Shown: one piece after another, positions 21,384-45,857 of the stretch
How positions within the stretch are numbered: position 1 is the first letter of the stretch
Layout of the letters: every line of letters starts with the position of its first letter
IMG/VR virus record: IMGVR_UViG_3300002834_000024
Coordinates: 192,001-256,000 of that record
Direction: 5' to 3' (one strand)
Source of the DNA: a virus
Taxonomy: Duplodnaviria; Heunggongvirae; Uroviricota; Caudoviricetes
DNA: 64,000 nt
Notes under the pieces: generated by a model
What the model saw: only the letters and a program-made list of their open reading frames with translations
Told to the model about the DNA's origin: nothing
Databases searched by the model: none
Translations under genes and position numbers: made by a program

Positions 21384-21827
21384 ATGGCAGCAAGTAAATT
21401 TTTTCCAATGAGTGAGGATATTGTAGATTTAATCCTTGATGTAATGAAAGATGATACACCCTATCTGGCGACATTAGGTCTTGATTTTACTTATCTTGGA
21501 GTTGCAAAACAACCATCAATAATTAAAGTATCAAAGATTGCACCAATAGCTGAATATCTTATTGAAAAGGAAACAATTGTAATAACAATTTATGAACAAG
21601 CATTTGAAATGCTAACACCAGAATATAAGAAGATGGTTATAGCACATGCGTTAAATTCAATTGAATATGATTCAGATAAAGATAAATTGAATATTCGTGG
21701 AAATGGTGGAACAGCCATTGATGAAGGGATATACAACAAATATAAAGAAACATCTGTACTGGCAGTATTTGCTGGCGAACATGCAATCAGACAAATCGAA
21801 GAAGATAAGAAAAAAGATAAACAATAA
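21384..21827 (+). CDS. Phage metallopeptidase-like protein (degenerate HExxH)
   Basis: FEML...MVIAHALNSI resembles phage metallopeptidase domains. Confidence 0.45.
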   Translation: MAASKFFPMSEDIVDLILDVMKDDTPYLATLGLDFTYLGVAKQPSIIKVSKIAPIAEYLIEKETIVITIYEQAFEMLTPEYKKMVIAHALNSIEYDSDKDKLNIRGNGGTAIDEGIYNKYKETSVLAVFAGEHAIRQIEEDKKKDKQ

Positions 21828-22150
21828 TGGACAAAATTGAAATTAGAGTTGGTATTGGTTTGGATAGTATAACTTTTGCTATATTACCATCCAGAAGACA
21901 ATATATAAATAATTGTTATCCAGATACAATTCAAGCAAACTATGTTACCATTAACTATGATATTAATAAGTGTGAAAATGTTGAAAACTTTATTTTGAAG
22001 TATAAACATAATATTTCCACAATCTTATTTGGAATAGATAGTCAAATTGTTTTATCTGATGATAAAGTTAGAGAAATACAATTTGTGTATTCCAAAGACG
22101 AAAAAATATTATATACCTATACAATGTCAGATCATTGTAGAAAAATATAA
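21827..22150 (+). CDS. Hypothetical protein
   Basis: Coupled ORF. Confidence 0.6.
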   Translation: MDKIEIRVGIGLDSITFAILPSRRQYINNCYPDTIQANYVTINYDINKCENVENFILKYKHNISTILFGIDSQIVLSDDKVREIQFVYSKDEKILYTYTMSDHCRKI

Positions 22151-22154
22151 TATA

Positions 22155-22304
22155 TTATTTAGTTCTGATAATAGCACGTCTTGTATTCACTCTTGGAGTA
22201 ACCCCACCATAGTTACCATTAGGTTTAACCCCAATATTTCTTGGTGCTTGTTTTTGAACCTGTGTTTTAACAGCTGGTACAGCTCTTTTTGAACAATTGC
22301 ACAT
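22155..22304 (-). CDS. Small basic protein (49 aa, MCNCSKRAVP...)
   Basis: Hand translation; TATTTATA on minus strand just upstream. Confidence 0.55.
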   Translation of the reverse strand: MCNCSKRAVPAVKTQVQKQAPRNIGVKPNGNYGGVTPRVNTRRAIIRTK

Positions 22305-22419
22305 AATATTAATTATTTTAATATAAATATGATTAAAACTTGGAATATTGAAATATTTATACTATATTTATAAATGAAATTACAGAGGTAATTCAAGAAA
22401 AAAGAAAATAACAAGGTAA

Positions 22420-22516
22420 AGGAAATTCACAGCAATTTTTTAAAAATTAACAATTATTCAATTCAAAGACCGTAGGGTTGATCTATCGGGATCAACAAAC
22501 AAAAACAAATTTCCTG
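22420..22516 (+). ncRNA. ACAGCAA stem-loop RNA unit 1
   Basis: AGGAAATT/AATTTCCT closing stem, ACAGCAA after 5' arm, inner GTTGATC/GATCAAC hairpin. Confidence 0.5.
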
Positions 22517-22527
22517 TCTTTTTTAAA

Positions 22528-22587
22528 GGAAAACTAACAGCAATTTTTAAACATACAAATTTTAGGCGTGTATTAAAGAGTTTTCCG
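22528..22587 (+). ncRNA. ACAGCAA stem-loop RNA unit 2
   Basis: GGAAAACT/AGTTTTCC stem, ACAGCAA, inner ATACA/TGTAT hairpin. Confidence 0.5.
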
Positions 22588-22645
22588 TTTTTTTTTTGAA
22601 AATTTAGAAATAATCAATATATTTATATTTGATTAAAAATTATAT

Positions 22646-22717
22646 CGTGGGATGGAGAAGTGGTATCTCGTGGGGCCCATAACCCCAAGATCGCAGGATC
22701 GTAACCTGCTCCCGCAA
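22646..22717 (+). tRNA. tRNA-fMet (CAT), initiator
   Basis: C1:A72 mismatch, G-C-rich anticodon stem, CAT anticodon. Confidence 0.9.
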
Positions 22718-22727
22718 CAAACTTATA

Positions 22728-22793
22728 GGAAAACTAACAGCAATGTTTAAAAACCATCATTCTGAATCAATGACGACATTAAAATGTTTTCCG
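22728..22793 (+). ncRNA. ACAGCAA stem-loop RNA unit 3
   Basis: GGAAAAC/GTTTTCC stem, ACAGCAA, inner TCATT-CTGAATC-AATGA hairpin. Confidence 0.5.
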
Positions 22794-22842
22794 TTATTTT
22801 TTAAAAATTGAACTATTTATAATTCTAAAAGAAATTAAAAAA

Positions 22843-22977
22843 ATGTTTTTAGTAACAATGACATCTTATATTCAAAATTCTATCAATTTACGTGGTGGAA
22901 ATAAGAATAATAAACCCTTTGGTGATGATGAACAACCAAAAGGGCAAGACCTGTTATTGCAAAAATTTGAAACATAA
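22843..22977 (+). CDS. Attenuator leader peptide 1 (44 aa) for tRNA array 1
   Basis: MFLVTMTSYIQNSINLRGGNKNNKPFGDDEQPKGQDLLLQKFET; core matches array 1 amino acids; contains antiterminator arm 22948-22959. Confidence 0.8.
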   Translation: MFLVTMTSYIQNSINLRGGNKNNKPFGDDEQPKGQDLLLQKFET

Positions 22978-23006
22978 ATGAAGATATAAGTTTCCATAGT
23001 TTTTCA

Positions 23007-23065
23007 GAGAACTCTCAATAACAAGGTCAAGAATAGGGCAAGTTATTGGGAGTTTTCATTTTTTT
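23007..23065 (+). terminator. Attenuator terminator upstream of tRNA array 1
   Basis: 16-bp stem 23007-23022/23042-23057 followed by A and T7. Confidence 0.8.
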
Positions 23066-23108
23066 AACATCCAGTTCAAAAGAGTTTGAATAATTTGGAT
23101 TACTTTTG
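23064..23108 (+). promoter_or_regulatory. TTAACATCCAG box + TAnnTTTG promoter
   Basis: Box, 26 nt, TACTTTTG; tRNA-Glu follows. Confidence 0.75.
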
Positions 23109-23118
23109 TAAAAAATAT

Positions 23119-23193
23119 GGCGGTATCGTATAACGGTTAGTACGACTGACTTTCGCTCAGTAAATAGGGGTTCGATTCCCCTTACCGCTACCA
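23119..23193 (+). tRNA. tRNA-Glu (TTC)
   Basis: Cloverleaf, ACTGA-CTTTCGC-TCAGT, encoded CCA. Confidence 0.92.
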
Positions 23194-23198
23194 AGAAA

Positions 23199-23210
23199 GT
23201 TCTTTGAAAT
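23199..23210 (+). promoter_or_regulatory. boxA-like antitermination element
   Basis: GTTCTTTGAAAT resembles rrn boxA. Confidence 0.5.
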
Positions 23211-23217
23211 ATAAAAT

Positions 23218-23289
23218 TCCCCTGTAGCTCCAATGTAGAGCGACAGACTGTTAATCTGTGGGTTCGTGGTTCAAGTCCACGCAGGGGAG
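23218..23289 (+). tRNA. tRNA-Asn (GTT)
   Basis: ACAGA-CTGTTAA-TCTGT. Confidence 0.92.
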
Positions 23290-23297
23290 CTAAAAAA

Positions 23298-23374
23298 CGA
23301 AAGGTAGAGGAGTCTGGTTCCCTCGTCATCTGATGTGCAGGTGGAGTACAATGGTTCAAATCCATTACTTTCGA
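23298..23374 (+). tRNA. tRNA-like gene, Pro-type body with aberrant anticodon loop
   Basis: C1-G72/A73, D and T arms intact, loop GATGTGC lacks U33. Confidence 0.55.
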
Positions 23375-23381
23375 CTAATAT

Positions 23382-23457
23382 CTAGATGTATAGGAGTCTG
23401 GTTTATCTAGCTCGCCCTGGAAGCGAGATCACGTTGGTTCAAATCCAACCATCTAGA
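23382..23457 (+). tRNA. tRNA-Pro (TGG), atypical C33/A37
   Basis: CTCGC-CCTGGAA-GCGAG. Confidence 0.75.
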
Positions 23458-23464
23458 CACAAAT

Positions 23465-23538
23465 GCAGGTGTCGTATAACGGTATTATTATATCTGGCTT
23501 CCAACCAGAGGACGTGGGTTCGATTCCTATCACCTGCT
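23465..23538 (+). tRNA. tRNA-Gly (TCC)
   Basis: TCTGG-CTTCCAA-CCAGA. Confidence 0.92.
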
Positions 23539-23548
23539 CAACAAATAT

Positions 23549-23621
23549 GGGATTTGTGGTGTAATGGCTAGCATATAACACTGTCACTGTTAAGGTTGGG
23601 GTTCGAGTCCCCCAGATCCCG
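23549..23621 (+). tRNA. tRNA-Asp (GTC)
   Basis: TAACA-CTGTCAC-TGTTA. Confidence 0.88.
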
Positions 23622-23629
23622 CAAAAAAA

Positions 23630-23702
23630 CGAGTAGTCGCACAGTTGGTAGTGCGCTTGGTTTGGGACCAAGAGGTCGGGAGTTCGAGTCTCTCCTATTC
23701 GA
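23630..23702 (+). tRNA. tRNA-Pro (TGG)
   Basis: CTTGG-TTTGGGA-CCAAG. Confidence 0.92.
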
Positions 23703-23799
23703 CATAAAAATAGAAATTATGAAGAAGATTTTTAAAATAAAACGAAAACATATGCAGTCCCCATAGTCACTATCGGCTATGGGGTCGCTATCAGGCTAT

Positions 23800-23870
23800 T
23801 TCCTCATAGTTCAATGGTAGAACTCTACACTTTTAATGTAGATATTCAGGTTCGATTCCTGATGGGGAAA
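23800..23870 (+). tRNA. tRNA-Lys (TTT)
   Basis: CTACA-CTTTTAA-TGTAG. Confidence 0.9.
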
Positions 23871-23902
23871 CAAAAAAAAAATAGATATATGATAATTAAT
23901 AT

Positions 23903-23974
23903 GGTTTCATAGTTCAACGGATAGAATATTTGACTACGGATCAAAAGATGAGGGTTCAAATCCTTCTGAAATCA
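23903..23974 (+). tRNA. tRNA-Arg (ACG)
   Basis: TTTGA-CTACGGA-TCAAA. Confidence 0.92.
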
Positions 23975-23985
23975 CAAGCATATAT

Positions 23986-24057
23986 TGTCCTATGGTGTAG
24001 TTGGAAACACACATCCCTTTGACGGATGTATCTTTTGTTCGAGGCAAAATGGGACAA
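23986..24057 (+). tRNA. tRNA-Gln (TTG)
   Basis: CATCC-CTTTGAC-GGATG. Confidence 0.9.
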
Positions 24058-24076
24058 CAAATTAAAATATAATGTT

Positions 24077-24379
24077 ATGGATAAAATAATGATGTTTGAT
24101 AAAGAACATGAAGTTCTTGTTAGTAATGATACTAATGGATTAGTATGTGAAACTGAAATGATGAATATGATTGGGAAATCAACAATTCCAGTTTTTATGA
24201 ATAGAAAGCAAAAATTAGAAGAACATGCAAGTTTGTTGTTAAATGATTTAGATGTTGAAATTATTCAATCACATCCAGTTGAACCATCTAAAATTCATGT
24301 AAAAGTAAAATCATTTGAGGATTGGAAAGAATCTATAAAAGATATACCGCCAATTGGAGTAGTAACCATACCTAATTGA
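24077..24379 (+). CDS. Hypothetical protein
   Basis: First ATG clear of tRNA-Gln. Confidence 0.6.
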   Translation: MDKIMMFDKEHEVLVSNDTNGLVCETEMMNMIGKSTIPVFMNRKQKLEEHASLLLNDLDVEIIQSHPVEPSKIHVKVKSFEDWKESIKDIPPIGVVTIPN

Positions 24380-24393
24380 TAATACCATCTAAT

Positions 24394-24438
24394 TTAACAT
24401 CCAGTAAAATTTATTTTTATATAAGTTTATTATTTTTG
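24394..24438 (+). promoter_or_regulatory. TTAACATCCAG box + TAnnTTTG promoter
   Basis: Box, 26 nt, TATTTTTG. Confidence 0.75.
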
Positions 24439-24471
24439 TATCATTATTAACACAAATAATTTAAAAAAGTT

Positions 24472-24819
24472 ATGAGAATTGCATTTAGGCTTTGTGATAA
24501 TACAAAACAGTTAAAAACAACTGATAAAAATGCACATGTTTTTGAAAGAGTAGATGATACATTCATAATTCCAAGAAAAGGTGATGTAGTTGTTTTTTTT
24601 GGTATAAAATATGAGGTAATTTCAGTAGAATTTACCTATAAAGAAATATCATTATTAAATATGTATCATGATGAAGCAAAGAAGATTTATCCATTTATTG
24701 TGGGACAAGATGATAAAATAACAGATACGGTAACTGTTCATTTATTTGAATATAGTCCAAAAATAAAGAAAAAGGGGTTTATTCGCACACTTCTTTCACA
24801 TGGGTTTACTAATTTTTAA
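24472..24819 (+). CDS. Hypothetical protein
   Basis: ORF after promoter. Confidence 0.6.
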   Translation: MRIAFRLCDNTKQLKTTDKNAHVFERVDDTFIIPRKGDVVVFFGIKYEVISVEFTYKEISLLNMYHDEAKKIYPFIVGQDDKITDTVTVHLFEYSPKIKKKGFIRTLLSHGFTNF

Positions 24820-24848
24820 AATTCATATTTATAAGAAAATATGTTTTT

Positions 24849-25088
24849 ATGGAAAAAATTGAAAATATTATAAAAGAAACTATAACTGAATATGTTTTGC
24901 AACCAGAGGGGTTGGATCAAAAGATTAGAAATAAATTAACACCAATATATAATCTCATTGAAGTATTAAAAATGTATGATAAAGATCCAGATCCAAAAAT
25001 ATGGGCGTTTATTATGAAAGAAAACAGTATGGTTGAAAAATCTATTCAAGAGATATTGGAATTAACAAAAGATTATCAACACACTTAA
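24849..25088 (+). CDS. Hypothetical protein with propeptide-like N-terminus
   Basis: IENIIKETITE; TATTTATA upstream. Confidence 0.55.
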   Translation: MEKIENIIKETITEYVLQPEGLDQKIRNKLTPIYNLIEVLKMYDKDPDPKIWAFIMKENSMVEKSIQEILELTKDYQHT

Positions 25089-25102
25089 AATCATATAATG
25101 TT

Positions 25103-25315
25103 ATGACAGAAAAACAGAAACAAAAAATTTGGAATTTCAAGGATACCAATCTTCAACAATGGCAACATGAAAGAACTATTGTTGAAAATGAATTATCTAA
25201 TAATCAATCCATGTTTTGTGTTTGTGGTAAATTAGCCACAGGATTTCATGAAATGAATTGTAGAAAATTCAATGATAAAGTGGATATAGAAACTCTTAAA
25301 AGATTAAAATTATAA
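25103..25315 (+). CDS. Small zinc-binding hypothetical protein
   Basis: CVCG...H...C. Confidence 0.55.
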   Translation: MTEKQKQKIWNFKDTNLQQWQHERTIVENELSNNQSMFCVCGKLATGFHEMNCRKFNDKVDIETLKRLKL

Positions 25316-25317
25316 AA

Positions 25318-25362
25318 TTAACATCCAGAACACTTTTTATTAATATGTTATGTTTATCTTTG
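25318..25362 (+). promoter_or_regulatory. TTAACATCCAG box + TAnnTTTG promoter
   Basis: Box, 26 nt, TATCTTTG. Confidence 0.75.
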
Positions 25363-25415
25363 AGTAATTTTTAGAGATAAAAGGATATTTATTTAGTAGA
25401 AAAGATAAAAATAAT

Positions 25416-26147
25416 ATGATTATGAACAAAGATAAAAAAGACTTGATAGTTGAGAGTTATAAGAACAAATTTTCCTTTTTACTTGGATATGATCCAGAAA
25501 TTGGGGGCGAATTGATAGAAGCAAACCACCATAATTTTATGTCAGAAATTATGGGACAAGATTCATTCAATAAACAACCAATGCAAAGATTAGATGAAAT
25601 AACAACTGACAGATTGTTAGGAAAACATTATGAAAATGGATTTGTTATTCTGTCAGCATCAAGGAGTGAATTATCCGATGCAGAAAATGTAACACGAAAT
25701 CAAAAACTTTTAAATATTTTACAAAGTAGTAGTAATGTTTTTTCATTTTTACCAGTCTATGGTGGATATATCGAAAATAAGGGTACAGAAAACGAACAAC
25801 GTGTTTTTGAAAGAAGTTTTGTAATCTTGAATTTTGATAAAAATGGTAATGTTGGAGATTTTGATGATTTAATGAGTTTTTCACAAGAACTTTCTAATCG
25901 TTTTCATCAAGAAACATATCTTATCAAAAAACCAGGTAATGCACCACCATATTATATTCGTACAAAAAGTGGCAAGGTAGATTGGGAATTTACTGGTGAA
26001 ATCAAAATAGATGATTTAACACAAAAATATTTTACCCGATTAAGACAACTTGGAAAACAATTTACATTTGAAGGTGTTTATATTAATCCAAAACCAATGT
26101 GTTATAGTGAAAGACATTGTAGATATTTGAAAAATGAAATATTTTAA
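25416..26147 (+). CDS. Conserved phage hypothetical protein
   Basis: ILSASR..N..RN..L..PVYGGYIE..E.SF..F.QE pattern. Confidence 0.65.
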   Translation: MIMNKDKKDLIVESYKNKFSFLLGYDPEIGGELIEANHHNFMSEIMGQDSFNKQPMQRLDEITTDRLLGKHYENGFVILSASRSELSDAENVTRNQKLLNILQSSSNVFSFLPVYGGYIENKGTENEQRVFERSFVILNFDKNGNVGDFDDLMSFSQELSNRFHQETYLIKKPGNAPPYYIRTKSGKVDWEFTGEIKIDDLTQKYFTRLRQLGKQFTFEGVYINPKPMCYSERHCRYLKNEIF

Positions 26148-26189
26148 CATCCAGAAGATTGTTTTTTAAAAAAATTGTTTGTACTTTTG
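26144..26189 (+). promoter_or_regulatory. TTAACATCCAG box + TAnnTTTG promoter
   Basis: Box, 27 nt, TACTTTTG. Confidence 0.75.
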
Positions 26190-26195
26190 TATCAC

Positions 26196-26390
26196 ATATA
26201 GAGTAATCTATATTGTTTAAATTTAGTTATGAGGATGTGGACTGAATTGTGTGATGTATGTCATTGCAAAATGCACAATTCAAGGGATACAGCAAGACAG
26301 CTAACAAGGTGAATTAACATCAAAGGGTGAAAATCTCACAAACATAAGGTTGAAAGCCCGTAAAAGAATTTGATGCGTGTTGATTGTGTA
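26196..26390 (+). ncRNA. Candidate structured ncRNA
   Basis: Several stems with GNRA tetraloops directly after a promoter. Confidence 0.45.
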
Positions 26391-26463
26391 GTAATTATTT
26401 TAAACTTTTTTTTAAAAATTGAATTTATTGACTATTTATAATAAAATTAAAAATTTTTTAACA

Positions 26464-26574
26464 ATGAAACGATTTAGTTTACATATTAGTATTACCTTAT
26501 CAGCAATGGCGTATTGCTGGTTGGTGTCTTATTGTACACTTTTTACACATTTTGGTGGAATTGTTTCAAGTTAA
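26464..26574 (+). CDS. Attenuator leader peptide 2 (36 aa) for tRNA array 2
   Basis: MKRFSLHISITLSAMAYCWLVSYCTLFTHFGGIVSS; residues 4-30 all match array 2; antiterminator arm 26561-26570. Confidence 0.82.
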   Translation: MKRFSLHISITLSAMAYCWLVSYCTLFTHFGGIVSS

Positions 26575-26605
26575 TATTATATGAAATAAAGATAGGAAAG
26601 ATTAT

Positions 26606-26662
26606 AATCCCCTTGAAACAAATTAGTCAAAAAGTGATGAAAAGTTTTAAGGGGATTTTTTT
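26606..26662 (+). terminator. Attenuator terminator upstream of tRNA array 2
   Basis: 14-bp stem 26606-26619/26644-26657 with T tract ending 2 nt before first tRNA. Confidence 0.82.
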
Positions 26663-26664
26663 AT

Positions 26665-26736
26665 TGTGTTATAGTTCAGTGGTAGAACAGGTGTTTCATA
26701 GGCATCAAGTCGGGGGTTCAAATCCCTCTAACGCAA
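26665..26736 (+). tRNA. tRNA-Met (CAT), elongator (Ile2 not excluded)
   Basis: GGTGT-TTCATAG-GCATC. Confidence 0.8.
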
Positions 26737-26746
26737 CAAATATATT

Positions 26747-26831
26747 GGAGAGTAAACCTGGACATGGGTTAGGGACCGCCTGCTAAGCGGATCGTTCCGC
26801 AAGGAATTTGGATCGAGACCAATGCTCTCCG
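26747..26831 (+). tRNA. tRNA-Ser (GCT)
   Basis: CTGCTAA loop, long variable arm, G73. Confidence 0.9.
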
Positions 26832-26840
26832 CAAAATTTT

Positions 26841-26932
26841 GGAGGTGTAACCCTAATGTGTAAGGGACTGGTCTTGAAAACCAGCAGTAATCATGTAAAA
26901 GTGATGTGTCAGTTCGAGTCTGACCACCTCCG
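26841..26932 (+). tRNA. tRNA-Ser (TGA)
   Basis: CTGGT-CTTGAAA-ACCAG, long variable arm. Confidence 0.92.
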
Positions 26933-26944
26933 CCTTAATAATGA

Positions 26945-26956
26945 GGTCTTTGACAT
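26945..26956 (+). promoter_or_regulatory. boxA-like antitermination element
   Basis: GGTCTTTGACAT resembles rrn boxA. Confidence 0.5.
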
Positions 26957-26972
26957 GTTGGTAAAAATAAAT

Positions 26973-27060
26973 GAGAGTGCGCTAGCGTTGGAGAGCTGGG
27001 ATGGGCTGTAACCCCATTGCCTTTAACAGGGCTTAGTAGGTTCGATTCCTACCACTCTCA
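26973..27060 (+). tRNA. tRNA-Tyr (GTA)
   Basis: ATGGG-CTGTAAC-CCCAT, long variable arm. Confidence 0.92.
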
Positions 27061-27065
27061 CATAT

Positions 27066-27140
27066 GGGAATATCGTATAGGTGGTTATTGTACGCTGGAC
27101 TGAAAATCCAGAGGCTGGGGTTCAACTCCCTGTGTTCCCA
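27066..27140 (+). tRNA. tRNA-Phe (GAA)
   Basis: CTGGA-CTGAAAA-TCCAG. Confidence 0.92.
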
Positions 27141-27150
27141 CAATAAGTGA

Positions 27151-27234
27151 GGGGATGTGGCGAAATTGGTAGTACGCATCGGGTTTAAGCCCCGATTCCC
27201 AAAAGGAGTGTCGGTTCGAGTCCGACCATCCTCA
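27151..27234 (+). tRNA. tRNA-Leu (TAA)
   Basis: TCGGG-TTTAAGC-CCCGA. Confidence 0.92.
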
Positions 27235-27242
27235 CAACAAAT

Positions 27243-27327
27243 GGGGATATGGGGGAATTGGCAGACCCGCCTGTTTTAGGAACAGGTGCAGTAATGCGTG
27301 TGAGTTCGAGTCTCACTATCCCTACCA
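27243..27327 (+). tRNA. tRNA-Leu (TAG)
   Basis: CCTGT-TTTAGGA-ACAGG, encoded CCA. Confidence 0.92.
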
Positions 27328-27330
27328 AAT

Positions 27331-27401
27331 GTTCCATTAGCATAATGGTAGTGTACTGGTCTGCAAAACCAGGTGTATCCGTTCAATTCGGATATGGAAC
27401 T
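27331..27401 (+). tRNA. tRNA-Cys (GCA)
   Basis: CTGGT-CTGCAAA-ACCAG, U73. Confidence 0.92.
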
Positions 27402-27415
27402 CAAAAAATATTAAA

Positions 27416-27488
27416 GGGGCTGTCATATAGTTGGCTATTATGATAGATTTGCAATCTATTCACTGGGGTTCGAGACCCCACAGCTCCA
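27416..27488 (+). tRNA. tRNA-Ala (TGC)
   Basis: ATAGA-TTTGCAA-TCTAT, G3:U70. Confidence 0.92.
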
Positions 27489-27494
27489 CAAAAA

Positions 27495-27568
27495 GTTTCT
27501 GTATTTCAGTGGTTTAGAATGTTACTCTTACAAGGTAAAGGTCGTTGGTTCAAATCCAACCAGAAACA
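27495..27568 (+). tRNA. tRNA-Val (TAC)
   Basis: TTACT-CTTACAA-GGTAA. Confidence 0.92.
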
Positions 27569-27578
27569 CTCATAACAT

Positions 27579-27651
27579 TGGCACGTATATCAATGGTCAG
27601 ATTACCACCCTGATAAGGTGGGGGTTACTGGTTCAAGTCCAGTCGTGCCAA
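27579..27651 (+). tRNA. tRNA-Ile (GAT)
   Basis: CCACC-CTGATAA-GGTGG. Confidence 0.92.
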
Positions 27652-27666
27652 CTAAATTTTTTATAT

Positions 27667-27737
27667 AGGTACATGGTGTAATGGTAGCATTTTGGTCTCC
27701 AAAACCAACGATCAGGGTTCAAATCCTTGTGTACCTG
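27667..27737 (+). tRNA. tRNA-Trp (CCA)
   Basis: TTGGT-CTCCAAA-ACCAA, G73. Confidence 0.92.
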
Positions 27738-27743
27738 CTACAT

Positions 27744-27817
27744 GGTATCGCTGGTGTAATGGTTAGCATGGCACATTGTGAGTGTGTAGGTTAGGGGTTC
27801 AAGTCCCCTGCGATACC
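27744..27817 (+). tRNA. tRNA-His (GTG)
   Basis: G-1:C73, GCACA-TTGTGAG-TGTGT. Confidence 0.92.
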
Positions 27818-27873
27818 CAAATATTTGGAAAACAATTTTAAAAACAGTATTTTTGTATTAAAATTTTAAAAAT

Positions 27874-28380
27874 ATGAATAAAAAAATGATTTTATTGTCA
27901 ATATTAATGACAAGTCTGTTTTATGGTTGTGGAAGTATGGGTAGTGTTGCTGTTAAAAATGTAAATTCATGTACATATAAAATTGTTAATACAACTTTTA
28001 TTTATGATTTGTTTGATAGTGATGAAGAATATGAAAATAAATTTAGGTTAATTAAATTAGCAATTTATGATATATTTCCTAATATGGATGGTAACACATT
28101 TTTATTTGATGATGAATTAAAAGTTATTCAAGGAAAAATGATTTATAATGTACATACAGATTCTTTTTTTGGAACAAAATATGAAGGGAGAAGTAATTTC
28201 AAAATTATTAATAATAAGATAACATTTAGTAATCCCGAAATATTTTTTTTACCATCTCGTTATAGTAGTGGTGGGTGGGAGAAAATACCAAATGAGGGAA
28301 CTATATCTGAAAAAACCGCATGTAATACAATAGATGTGTGGGAAAAAATGGTAATAAAACTTTTAGAAAACATAAAATGA
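27874..28380 (+). CDS. Lipoprotein inserted in tRNA array 2
   Basis: Signal peptide with LFYGC lipobox. Confidence 0.7.
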   Translation: MNKKMILLSILMTSLFYGCGSMGSVAVKNVNSCTYKIVNTTFIYDLFDSDEEYENKFRLIKLAIYDIFPNMDGNTFLFDDELKVIQGKMIYNVHTDSFFGTKYEGRSNFKIINNKITFSNPEIFFLPSRYSSGGWEKIPNEGTISEKTACNTIDVWEKMVIKLLENIK

Positions 28381-28385
28381 TTAAT

Positions 28386-28457
28386 GCTTCTGTAGTTCAA
28401 TGGCTAGAACATCTGCTTTGTAACCAGAAAATATCAGTTCGATTCTGATCAGAAGCT
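28386..28457 (+). tRNA. tRNA-Thr (TGT)
   Basis: GCTTCTG/CAGAAGC acceptor, TTTGTAA loop. Confidence 0.88.
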
Positions 28458-28476
28458 CTCAATTTTTACCAACAAA

Positions 28477-28647
28477 ATGTCAAAAGAATTATATAATTGG
28501 TTAGAATTTCGTTTCAGACATGATAATTTAAAAAAATATCATAAATATTTTCAACAATGGGTTGATAATATAACTGAAAATCAAGTTCAAGGTTTTTATA
28601 ATCAATTTACCAGTTTCATAGGTCAAGATATAATTTGGAAACCATAA
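28477..28647 (+). CDS. Small hypothetical protein (56 aa, MSKELYNWLEFRF...)
   Basis: Hand translation, below track cutoff. Confidence 0.55.
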   Translation: MSKELYNWLEFRFRHDNLKKYHKYFQQWVDNITENQVQGFYNQFTSFIGQDIIWKP

Positions 28648-28657
28648 TTTACCAACA

Positions 28658-28981
28658 ATGAAAAATTTCAATAAACTTAGAGAGGAAGAAAAATATATTT
28701 ATGAATCCATTATGGCAGCCAGAAAGGTTCAATCTTTTTTATGGGGCGAATTTGAAGAAACAAGTGCTGACATAGAAGAATTTTGTCGAATGTTTCGGAA
28801 AAGAGTTTCAAAAATTGATGAAATAGATTTTAATAATCCACATTATAAAATTGAATTAAAAAAGAGGGTACTTCAAATTTGTGCTATTGGTATTAATTTT
28901 ATCAATAAATTGGAAAATAATGACTTTCCTGAAAAACCACTATTACCATCTAATCTTTCAAACTATTCATTATCCAATTAA
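28658..28981 (+). CDS. Hypothetical protein
   Basis: ORF. Confidence 0.6.
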   Translation: MKNFNKLREEEKYIYESIMAARKVQSFLWGEFEETSADIEEFCRMFRKRVSKIDEIDFNNPHYKIELKKRVLQICAIGINFINKLENNDFPEKPLLPSNLSNYSLSN

Positions 28982-29032
28982 TTTTGTTAATTAATTTTAT
29001 TTTAAATATTTTTATATAAAATATTAATTTTT

Positions 29033-29500
29033 TTGGAAAAACAGCTTGATTATATATCAATATTTAAAGTACATAGTGTTGAACCCATTAAACCTTCAAA
29101 CTGTGATGGTACTATTCGTTACATTACATTGTGTATTACTTGTGATACCAAACCCAATGATACATCCTTTGATTCATTAAGAGTTCTTACAACCTCTAAA
29201 ATTCCAGATGCTTATCATGAAGGATTTACTACATTTGAGGAATATGAGGAAATACCTTTTAGAGTGATTACTACACTAATTCAATGTAATAAGATTGATG
29301 ACATATTTTATTTGGAACTTGATATGTCAAAACCATCTTGCGATATGGGTATTACAATTGATGGTTACATTGGTATTGATCCAAGAATTGATATTGATGT
29401 AAGTAACTTTTTAATAACTTCTAACCAAGATGTGTTTAATTCAAATACAATTACTTTTAATGAGGATTTTTTTAATAATATAAAAAACATAAAATTTTAA
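29033..29500 (+). CDS. Hypothetical protein ending FNNIKNIKF
   Basis: ORF, TTG start. Confidence 0.6.
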   Translation: MEKQLDYISIFKVHSVEPIKPSNCDGTIRYITLCITCDTKPNDTSFDSLRVLTTSKIPDAYHEGFTTFEEYEEIPFRVITTLIQCNKIDDIFYLELDMSKPSCDMGITIDGYIGIDPRIDIDVSNFLITSNQDVFNSNTITFNEDFFNNIKNIKF

Positions 29501-45768: not shown

Positions 45769-45841
45769 TGTCCTTTCCTCTAGTTGGTTAGGAGACATGA
45801 CTCATAATCATGCAAGCTCGGTTCGATGCCGAGAGGGACAA
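45769..45841 (+). tRNA. tRNA (CAT), Ile2 or Met
   Basis: CATGA-CTCATAA-TCATG. Confidence 0.85.
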
Positions 45842-45857
45842 CAATAAAGAATAGAAA

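Follow-up and report, generated by a model that had tools for sequence, protein, structure and literature searches.

Predicted codon-matched leader-peptide attenuators upstream of two tRNA gene arrays in a large termite-gut phage

The 64,000-nucleotide stretch of DNA analysed here (the window; positions 192,001 to 256,000 of IMG/VR record IMGVR_UViG_3300002834_000024) belongs to a T4-like virus record of 274,786 bp and 29% GC from termite-gut metagenomes, and carries two arrays of tRNA genes. Each array is preceded by a probable late promoter, a short leader open reading frame (ORF) and a predicted intrinsic terminator (Table 1). With a probability of about 0.85, each such cassette is a ribosome-mediated leader-peptide transcription attenuator serving as a negative-feedback gauge of tRNA supply, such that more of a tRNA set is probably made only when its codons are decoded slowly. 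The basis for this reading is the observed anatomy, composition bias, conservation, covariation and tracking of array content, together with a computed switch geometry.

Table 1. Features of the two cassettes and their surroundings (window coordinates)
Feature	Position	Strand	Remarks
Initiator tRNA-Met with late-promoter motif TATTTATA (22620-22627), no leader	22620..22718	+	sequence
Probable late promoter, cassette 1, ACTATTTATA	22812..22821	+	same motif ahead of tail sheath and portal genes
Leader ORF 1, 44 amino acids (aa)	22843..22977	+	codons 17-36 cover E, N, P, G, D, K, R, Q; Arg codon CGT
Antiterminator arm 1	22948..22959	+	pairs with 23016-23028; duplex -14.9 kcal/mol, 12 bp with one bulge
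Predicted intrinsic terminator 1	23007..23065	+	16-bp stem, U7; also delimited as 23007-23057
Bypass promoter, TAACATCCAG box and Bacteroidota-type -7 element	23065..23108	+	directly before tRNA-Glu
tRNA array 1: Glu, Asn, pseudo-tRNA, Pro, Gly, Asp, Pro, Lys, Arg(ACG), Gln	23119..24058	+	E, N, P, G, D, K, R, Q, plus one aberrant gene
Lys-rich mini-ORF (23719-23766) and hairpin (23759-23784)	23719..23784	+	no U run; before tRNA-Lys
Promoter upstream of cassette 2, TAACATCCAG and TAnnTTTG	26145..26189	+	transcript would still meet terminator 2
Probable late promoter, cassette 2, ACTATTTATA	26431..26440	+	
Leader ORF 2, 36 aa	26464..26574	+	codons 4-30 cover M, S, Y, F, L, C, A, V, I, W, H, T
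Antiterminator arm 2	26561..26570	+	perfect 10-bp match to 26612-26621
Predicted intrinsic terminator 2	26606..26664	+	abuts tRNA-Met; U run; also delimited as 26606-26657
tRNA array 2: Met, Ser(TGA), Ser(GCU), Tyr, Phe, Leu(TAA), Leu(TAG), Cys, Ala, Val, Ile, Trp, His, Thr	26665..28458	+	M, S, Y, F, L, C, A, V, I, W, H, T
ORF of 168 aa	27874-28380	+	sets the last array 2 gene, Thr, apart

The array contents agree with a preliminary description of this DNA, made from the letters alone, which had assigned 8 amino acids to array 1 and 12 to array 2, one aberrant gene aside. To these is added the Ser(GCU) gene of array 2 (26747-26833), which was missed by ARAGORN at default settings and the anticodon of which was read from the sequence. 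The common upstream layout of promoter motif, short ORF, antiterminator arm and intrinsic terminator was found at both arrays as described, and these are the only two promoter-ORF-terminator cassettes in the whole genome. The leader cores do use the amino acids of their own arrays, as had been claimed. Residues 17-36 of leader 1 fall into the array 1 set at 19 of 20 positions and residues 4-30 of leader 2 into the array 2 set at 27 of 27 (binomial 8e-8; a binomial test had been called for in the preliminary description), every member of each set being present. None of ~77,000 proteome windows matched the leader composition, and among the 2,306 short ORFs of the genome only the two leaders match, plus one near miss without a cassette. 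Counted over a fixed stretch of 15 codons that stops four codons short of the arm, the two leaders gave scores of 14:1 and 0:15 (Fisher p=1e-7). A further Fisher value, obtained on windows picked by hand, carries no weight here.

The match extends to isoacceptors. With superwobble allowed, array 2 reads every core codon of leader 2, Ser(GCU) counted, and array 1 reads all core codons of leader 1 but one Phe codon. The codon CGT is paired with Arg-ACG, though AGA makes up 60% of the Arg codons in the genome; AGT goes with Ser-GCU, and the Ile codon is always ATT, never ATA. The leaders start in A-rich surroundings with A at -3 and no Shine-Dalgarno (SD) motif, as in Bacteroidetes (PMC6847099). 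Indels in the leader 1 orthologs of two other termite phages (L120 and L121) preserve the frame, being multiples of three only. Selection on the leaders at the peptide level was rejected, because the leader families show no third-position excess.

The last codons of each leader are complementary to the 5' strand of its own terminator. The terminator stems are predicted at -21.8 (terminator 1) and -18.7 kcal/mol (terminator 2), with regional folding z values of -3.1 and -3.5, respectively. As the preliminary description had suggested, alternative structures were computed, by constrained folding of the nascent RNA with the ribosome footprint kept unpaired; this is an equilibrium model with kinetics outside it. 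The antiterminator depended on ribosome position in both leaders, being kept with the ribosomal A site no further than codon 33 (leader 1) or codon 29 (leader 2) and lost beyond, and in both leaders this switch point lies near the end of the codon bias. As for a 1:2 pause or anti-antiterminator hairpin, a pairing of ~8 bp between the arm and codons 5-7 of leader 1 is possible in the window, L120 and L121; without a ribosome, the antiterminator dominates at equilibrium. For leader 2 without a ribosome the antiterminator is partly suppressed, with 4.2 pairs versus about 10.

Leader translation, termination, read-through and the physiological trigger, which we infer from the sequence, would fit together as follows. 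RNA polymerase would start at the late promoter and a ribosome would translate the leader. When decoding is fast, the ribosome would reach the last codons and cover the antiterminator arm, the terminator would form and the array would remain silent. When a tRNA of the array set is scarce, whether because of cleavage or decay or because late phage mRNA titrates it, the ribosome would lag upstream, the arm would capture the 5' strand of the terminator and the polymerase would read into the tRNA genes. The initiator tRNA-Met, recognisable by its mismatched C1-A72 pair and by the three G-C pairs of its anticodon stem, lies outside the reach of such an elongation sensor and has its own late motif and no leader.

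The preliminary description had named both anticodon-nuclease defence and starvation as what the cassettes might counter. A shortage of functional tRNA is likelier to be the signal than amino-acid starvation, because the match reaches isoacceptors and extra tRNA cannot cure a lack of amino acids. Starvation would also stall the leader ribosome, but is the weaker purpose. A tRNA shortage of this kind could come from cleavage by host anticodon nucleases (PMC10264068, PMC11464382), from a general decay of tRNA or from heavy demand late in infection.

Relatives of the cassettes were found in two clades, and leader content changes with array content across both, a check that the preliminary description had proposed. 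Four termite phages carry leader 1 orthologs (L120, L121, L256 and G072), of which L256 and G072 also have leader 2; a short Asn-Asn-Lys-Pro stretch is conserved across the leader 1 orthologs. L120 and L121 retain leader 1, the arm, the terminator and the promoter downstream of it. In L256 the array is reduced to E, N, D, P and K, and the leader core is without G, Q and R. The clearest test of leaders tracking array content is G072, a complete 360-kb termite phage with E, N, D, P, P and K in array 1 and S, Y, S, F, L(TAG), C, T, A, I and H in array 2. Gln, Gly and Trp there make up a third array, which has a late promoter of its own, a third leader of 30 codons (L308:14752-14844) in which 10 of 14 core residues are G, Q or W, an arm at the leader stop codon and a terminator. 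Leader 1 of G072 has no G or Q in its core, and leader 2 lacks W and internal M.

Freshwater relatives, with about 37% polymerase identity, keep the promoter-leader-terminator-array layout and split the code differently. Array A comprises T, Q, S, P, K, V, Y, N, I(GAT), H, R(ACG), W, F, C and L(TAG). Array B is made up of L(TAA), CAT, I(TAT), G, A, E and D, to which R(TCT) is added in some cases. Among the sensor codons of distinct leaders, G, E, D and A account for 0 of 341 in A versus 73 of 206 in B; ATA occurs 0 versus 22 times, and TTA/TTG once versus 46 times. Arg-TCT lies in array A of some of these genomes and in array B of others, and the AGA/AGG leader codon goes along with it, the codon and the tRNA being concordant in 26 of 29 cassettes (10 both present, 16 both absent) and discordant in 3. 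The ends of the leaders pair better with their own than with others' terminators (p=0.002 for freshwater B, 0.001 for freshwater A and 0.04 for four termite phages). Contigs from a second study are identical to the window over both cassettes, with 0 differences. No close relative was found among GenBank phages, and viral contigs searched with the proteins neighbouring the cassettes gave no matches. DNA scans with the leader 1 core returned mostly chance matches, and a scan of genome contigs gave no confirmable cassette.

Several points weigh against this reading. The folding model sets no upstream limit on the sensing window, and with a ribosome at the leader 1 stop codon the antiterminator can re-form in the model. 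The first 16 codons of leader 1 are unmatched, codons 2-16 specifying mostly array 2 amino acids. Taken alone, the two arm duplexes of the window reach only near the 8% tail of the local null, the antiterminator duplex is weak (-5 to -7 kcal/mol) in some freshwater A leaders, and two freshwater records (L265 and L266) retain leader A over a rearranged array. Kinship among the records within the freshwater and termite sets means that the counts overstate independent events; the clade-level re-partition of the code and the third leader of G072 stand regardless of it. Finally, the bypass promoter begins at the end of the U run of terminator 1, and lies downstream of the terminator, so that array 1 could be transcribed ungated and made without read-through. 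It is kept in L120 and L121 and missing in L256 and G072. Given this promoter, the array 1 attenuator would govern only a late top-up in this phage. The attenuation logic put forward in the preliminary description gains conservation, arm covariation and content tracking in two clades, and has to be qualified for array 1, which also has an ungated promoter.

The leaders could instead be general sensors of translation rate, in which any slowing of the leader ribosome, by an antibiotic, starvation or host shut-off, would give read-through and the codon match would only bias sensitivity. Any A-site position upstream of the arm does permit the antiterminator in the folding model, the N-terminal part of leader 1 has amino acids of the other array, and the two leaders cover nearly all 20. 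A general sensor would have no need of matched content, yet content tracks the movement of tRNA genes down to single codons, and this explanation is considered unlikely. It is more improbable still that termination is constitutive, or relieved by an antitermination protein of the phage, with the arrays expressed from internal promoters and the leaders left as relics. Such promoters are seen after terminator 1, before the ORF preceding tRNA-Thr (a -7 element, TAnnTTTG, read from the sequence at 27848) and after several freshwater B terminators. However, terminator 2 leaves no promoter room before tRNA-Met, nor does the terminator of array 1 in L256 and G072 before the first tRNA, and relics would not be re-tuned when tRNA genes move.

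The match might also be a by-product of hydrophobic versus polar composition, if the leaders encoded functional microproteins (a membrane peptide from leader 2 and a polar one from leader 1) ahead of ordinary terminators. In this genome the split does follow hydrophobicity, and the conserved Asn-Asn-Lys-Pro stretch could be read in the same sense. The freshwater split is unrelated to hydrophobicity and still matched, though, and amino-acid-changing variants exceed synonymous ones in the leaders (28:11, 15:7 and 12:6). With ORF ends that covary with the terminator arm and a third leader rich in G, Q and W in G072, this is the least probable of the three explanations, and codon-matched attenuation is preferred.

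In the cassettes, a short ORF lies between the promoter and the regulated genes (in five termite phages and ~25 freshwater records), its regulatory codons are tied to the function of the downstream genes, and a predicted intrinsic terminator stands ahead of those genes. The computed antiterminator excludes the terminator and overlaps the ORF end, so placed that ribosome position would decide between the two. The downstream genes are tRNAs, not biosynthesis or synthetase genes, and the cassettes are therefore a variant of the classical leader-peptide attenuator and not a plain member of the class. The leaders of amino-acid operons (trpL, hisL, pheL, thrL and the ilvGMEDA leader) are classical and multivalent attenuators, and share with the phage cassettes a short leader (presumably translated in the phage as well) with regulatory codons and a last-codon arm that competes with an intrinsic terminator. 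The phage cassettes differ from these in that the output is tRNA genes and not enzymes, in their position behind a late promoter and in the isoacceptor-level match; their leaders sample 8-12 amino acids, or as many as about 15 in relatives, with only one or a few codons for each, in place of the runs of 1-3 amino acids in operon leaders. T-box riboswitches bind uncharged tRNA directly, without translation. They resemble the phage cassettes as terminator/antiterminator switches that sense tRNA status. A search for T-box stem I with a specifier loop and T-box bulge over 21500-29500 gave no Rfam match at E<=5.

Of the described leader-peptide attenuators, pheL (PMC3082878) regulates an amino-acid operon, and others control synthetase genes, namely pheST in gamma-proteobacteria and trpS and leuS in Streptomyces (PMC1262725). 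The latter share with the phage cassettes classical attenuation and feedback on a component of translation supply, and differ in sensing a single amino acid, in their protein-coding output and in being cellular. The trn L-array of Anabaena, repressed by TrcR (PMC8421152, PMC10272220), is alike in purpose, being a tRNA gene array induced upon impaired translation; it differs in being controlled through an RHH repressor that binds DNA at a direct-repeat operator over the promoter, and it has neither a codon-matched leader nor a terminator. At the late promoters of the two cassettes no repeated operator was apparent, and no search was aimed at a TrcR-type repressor. The closest kin are the multivalent ilv/thr leaders and the pheST-type synthetase attenuators and, by purpose, the TrcR-repressed array. 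No published attenuator on tRNA genes was found in the literature covered, from which subscription papers are mostly absent, in line with the preliminary description.

A further candidate switch precedes tRNA-Lys in array 1. The Lys-rich mini-ORF has five Lys codons among its first ten, and the mini-ORF and its hairpin are kept in five termite phages. The 3' arm of the hairpin is able to pair with the 5' strand of tRNA-Lys (23802-23809). In constrained folding of all five (5/5), a ribosome on the Lys codons left the tRNA acceptor stem intact, and a ribosome near the end of the mini-ORF freed the hairpin 3' arm, which captured the tRNA 5' strand. Own versus cross pairing of the arm ranked 8/120, which is not significant, and the arm in the window pairs better with the 5' end of tRNA-Asn than with that of tRNA-Lys. 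On balance, we lean slightly towards a role of the mini-ORF and hairpin in gating the folding of pre-tRNA-Lys. In freshwater records L205-L207 and L260-L278, a short conserved segment, beginning with ATGGAAAGTGACAAG and bearing Lys codons, stands directly ahead of tRNA-Lys(TTT) and extends into its 5' end; it is possibly a different Lys-sensing design.

The phage genome encodes T4-like capsid, portal, sheath and terminase proteins and a family B polymerase. SD-like motifs precede only 9 of 280 ORFs, and 24 of 26 TAACATCC[AG]G boxes genome-wide are followed, mostly 26-27 nucleotides on, by TAnnTTTG (background 1.8%), which is the -7 element of Bacteroidota (PMC6847099). The host is therefore probably a member of this phylum. 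The 26 TAACATCCAG copies, with fixed spacing to the -7 element (e.g. at 24395, 25319, 30360, 42065 and 46606), are candidate binding sites for a phage transcription activator. The motif TATTTATA lies 16-37 nucleotides upstream of many genes, including those for the tail sheath and portal, suggesting a late promoter. A scan for sigma-70 promoters was uninformative, this being the wrong promoter type for the phage, and the scan missed the long terminators. At L230:2529-2550 and L231:4185-4206 (minus strand), TATTTATA precedes a 30-codon ORF of mixed amino acids; the non-coding stretch after the ORF is G+C-rich, and no tRNA gene lies downstream.

Around the arrays, two solo tRNA genes, Arg-TCT (43336) and CAT (45769-45842), have no leader or terminator; the latter may be the Ile tRNA of the lysidine type, and the lack of ATA codons in both leaders would agree with that. 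The aberrant array 1 gene, nominally Thr(TGT), at 23298-23375 lacks U33 and has no Rfam tRNA match. A degenerate tRNA-like gene directly after tRNA-Asn recurs in several termite phages (also L302:975-1049 and L121:13155-13230), its D arm being Pro-like in the window, Gly-like in G072 and Gln-like in L121. A repeated hairpin element, starting with GGAAAACTAACAGCAA and ending in GTTTTCC and a T run, flanks the initiator tRNA (22523-22601 and 22723-22807, with a weaker copy at 22415). Similar ACAGCA elements occur in L120, L256 and G072, some within tRNA-like genes; a DNA scan for the hairpin motif gave mostly chance matches. Behind the TAACATCCAG promoter upstream of cassette 2, a GC-richer non-coding stretch (26195-26400) contains the word ACAGCAA, folds no better than shuffles (z -0.87) and has no Rfam match. 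Between the arrays, a gene of the S-adenosylmethionine lyase family (25416-26147; PF23780, E 3.5e-7) likely has an anti-restriction function. A basic ORF of 49 aa with a Cys-x-Cys start (22155-22304, minus strand) lies behind a late motif, and ORFs of similar size occupy the same place in L120, L121 and L256. In L121 (12200-12510), a Cas12f1-like/TnpB gene (PF07282) is followed by a short array of CRISPR-like repeats, just upstream of the initiator tRNA.

The reason for which phages have tRNA arrays is a long-standing question (PMC10264068). Phage tRNAs counter anticodon nucleases, as reported for PrrC, retron Ec78 and, with tRNA-Lys of T5, PARIS (PMC10264068, PMC11464382, PMC11555353). Such tRNAs replace depleted host tRNAs, tRNA-Lys (which has the extra candidate switch in the window) being a frequent target. 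These papers treat the tRNAs themselves, and on-demand control was not seen in the parts consulted. Tentatively, and at somewhat less than even odds, large Bacteroidota phages may possess a modular tRNA homeostat, in which blocks of elongator tRNAs each have a leader of their own codons that is rewritten when genes move, with a second, post-transcriptional tier for Lys, the whole serving to detect and answer tRNA-cleaving defences. A codon-matched attenuator would mean that the phage measures and restores its tRNA supply, the leader naming the tRNAs that are watched, and the codon-compensation and anti-nuclease hypotheses would become directly testable. Attenuation, otherwise concerned with one to three amino acids, would come to cover most of the code and would have a non-coding RNA output, and the cassettes may offer compact sensors of tRNA depletion.

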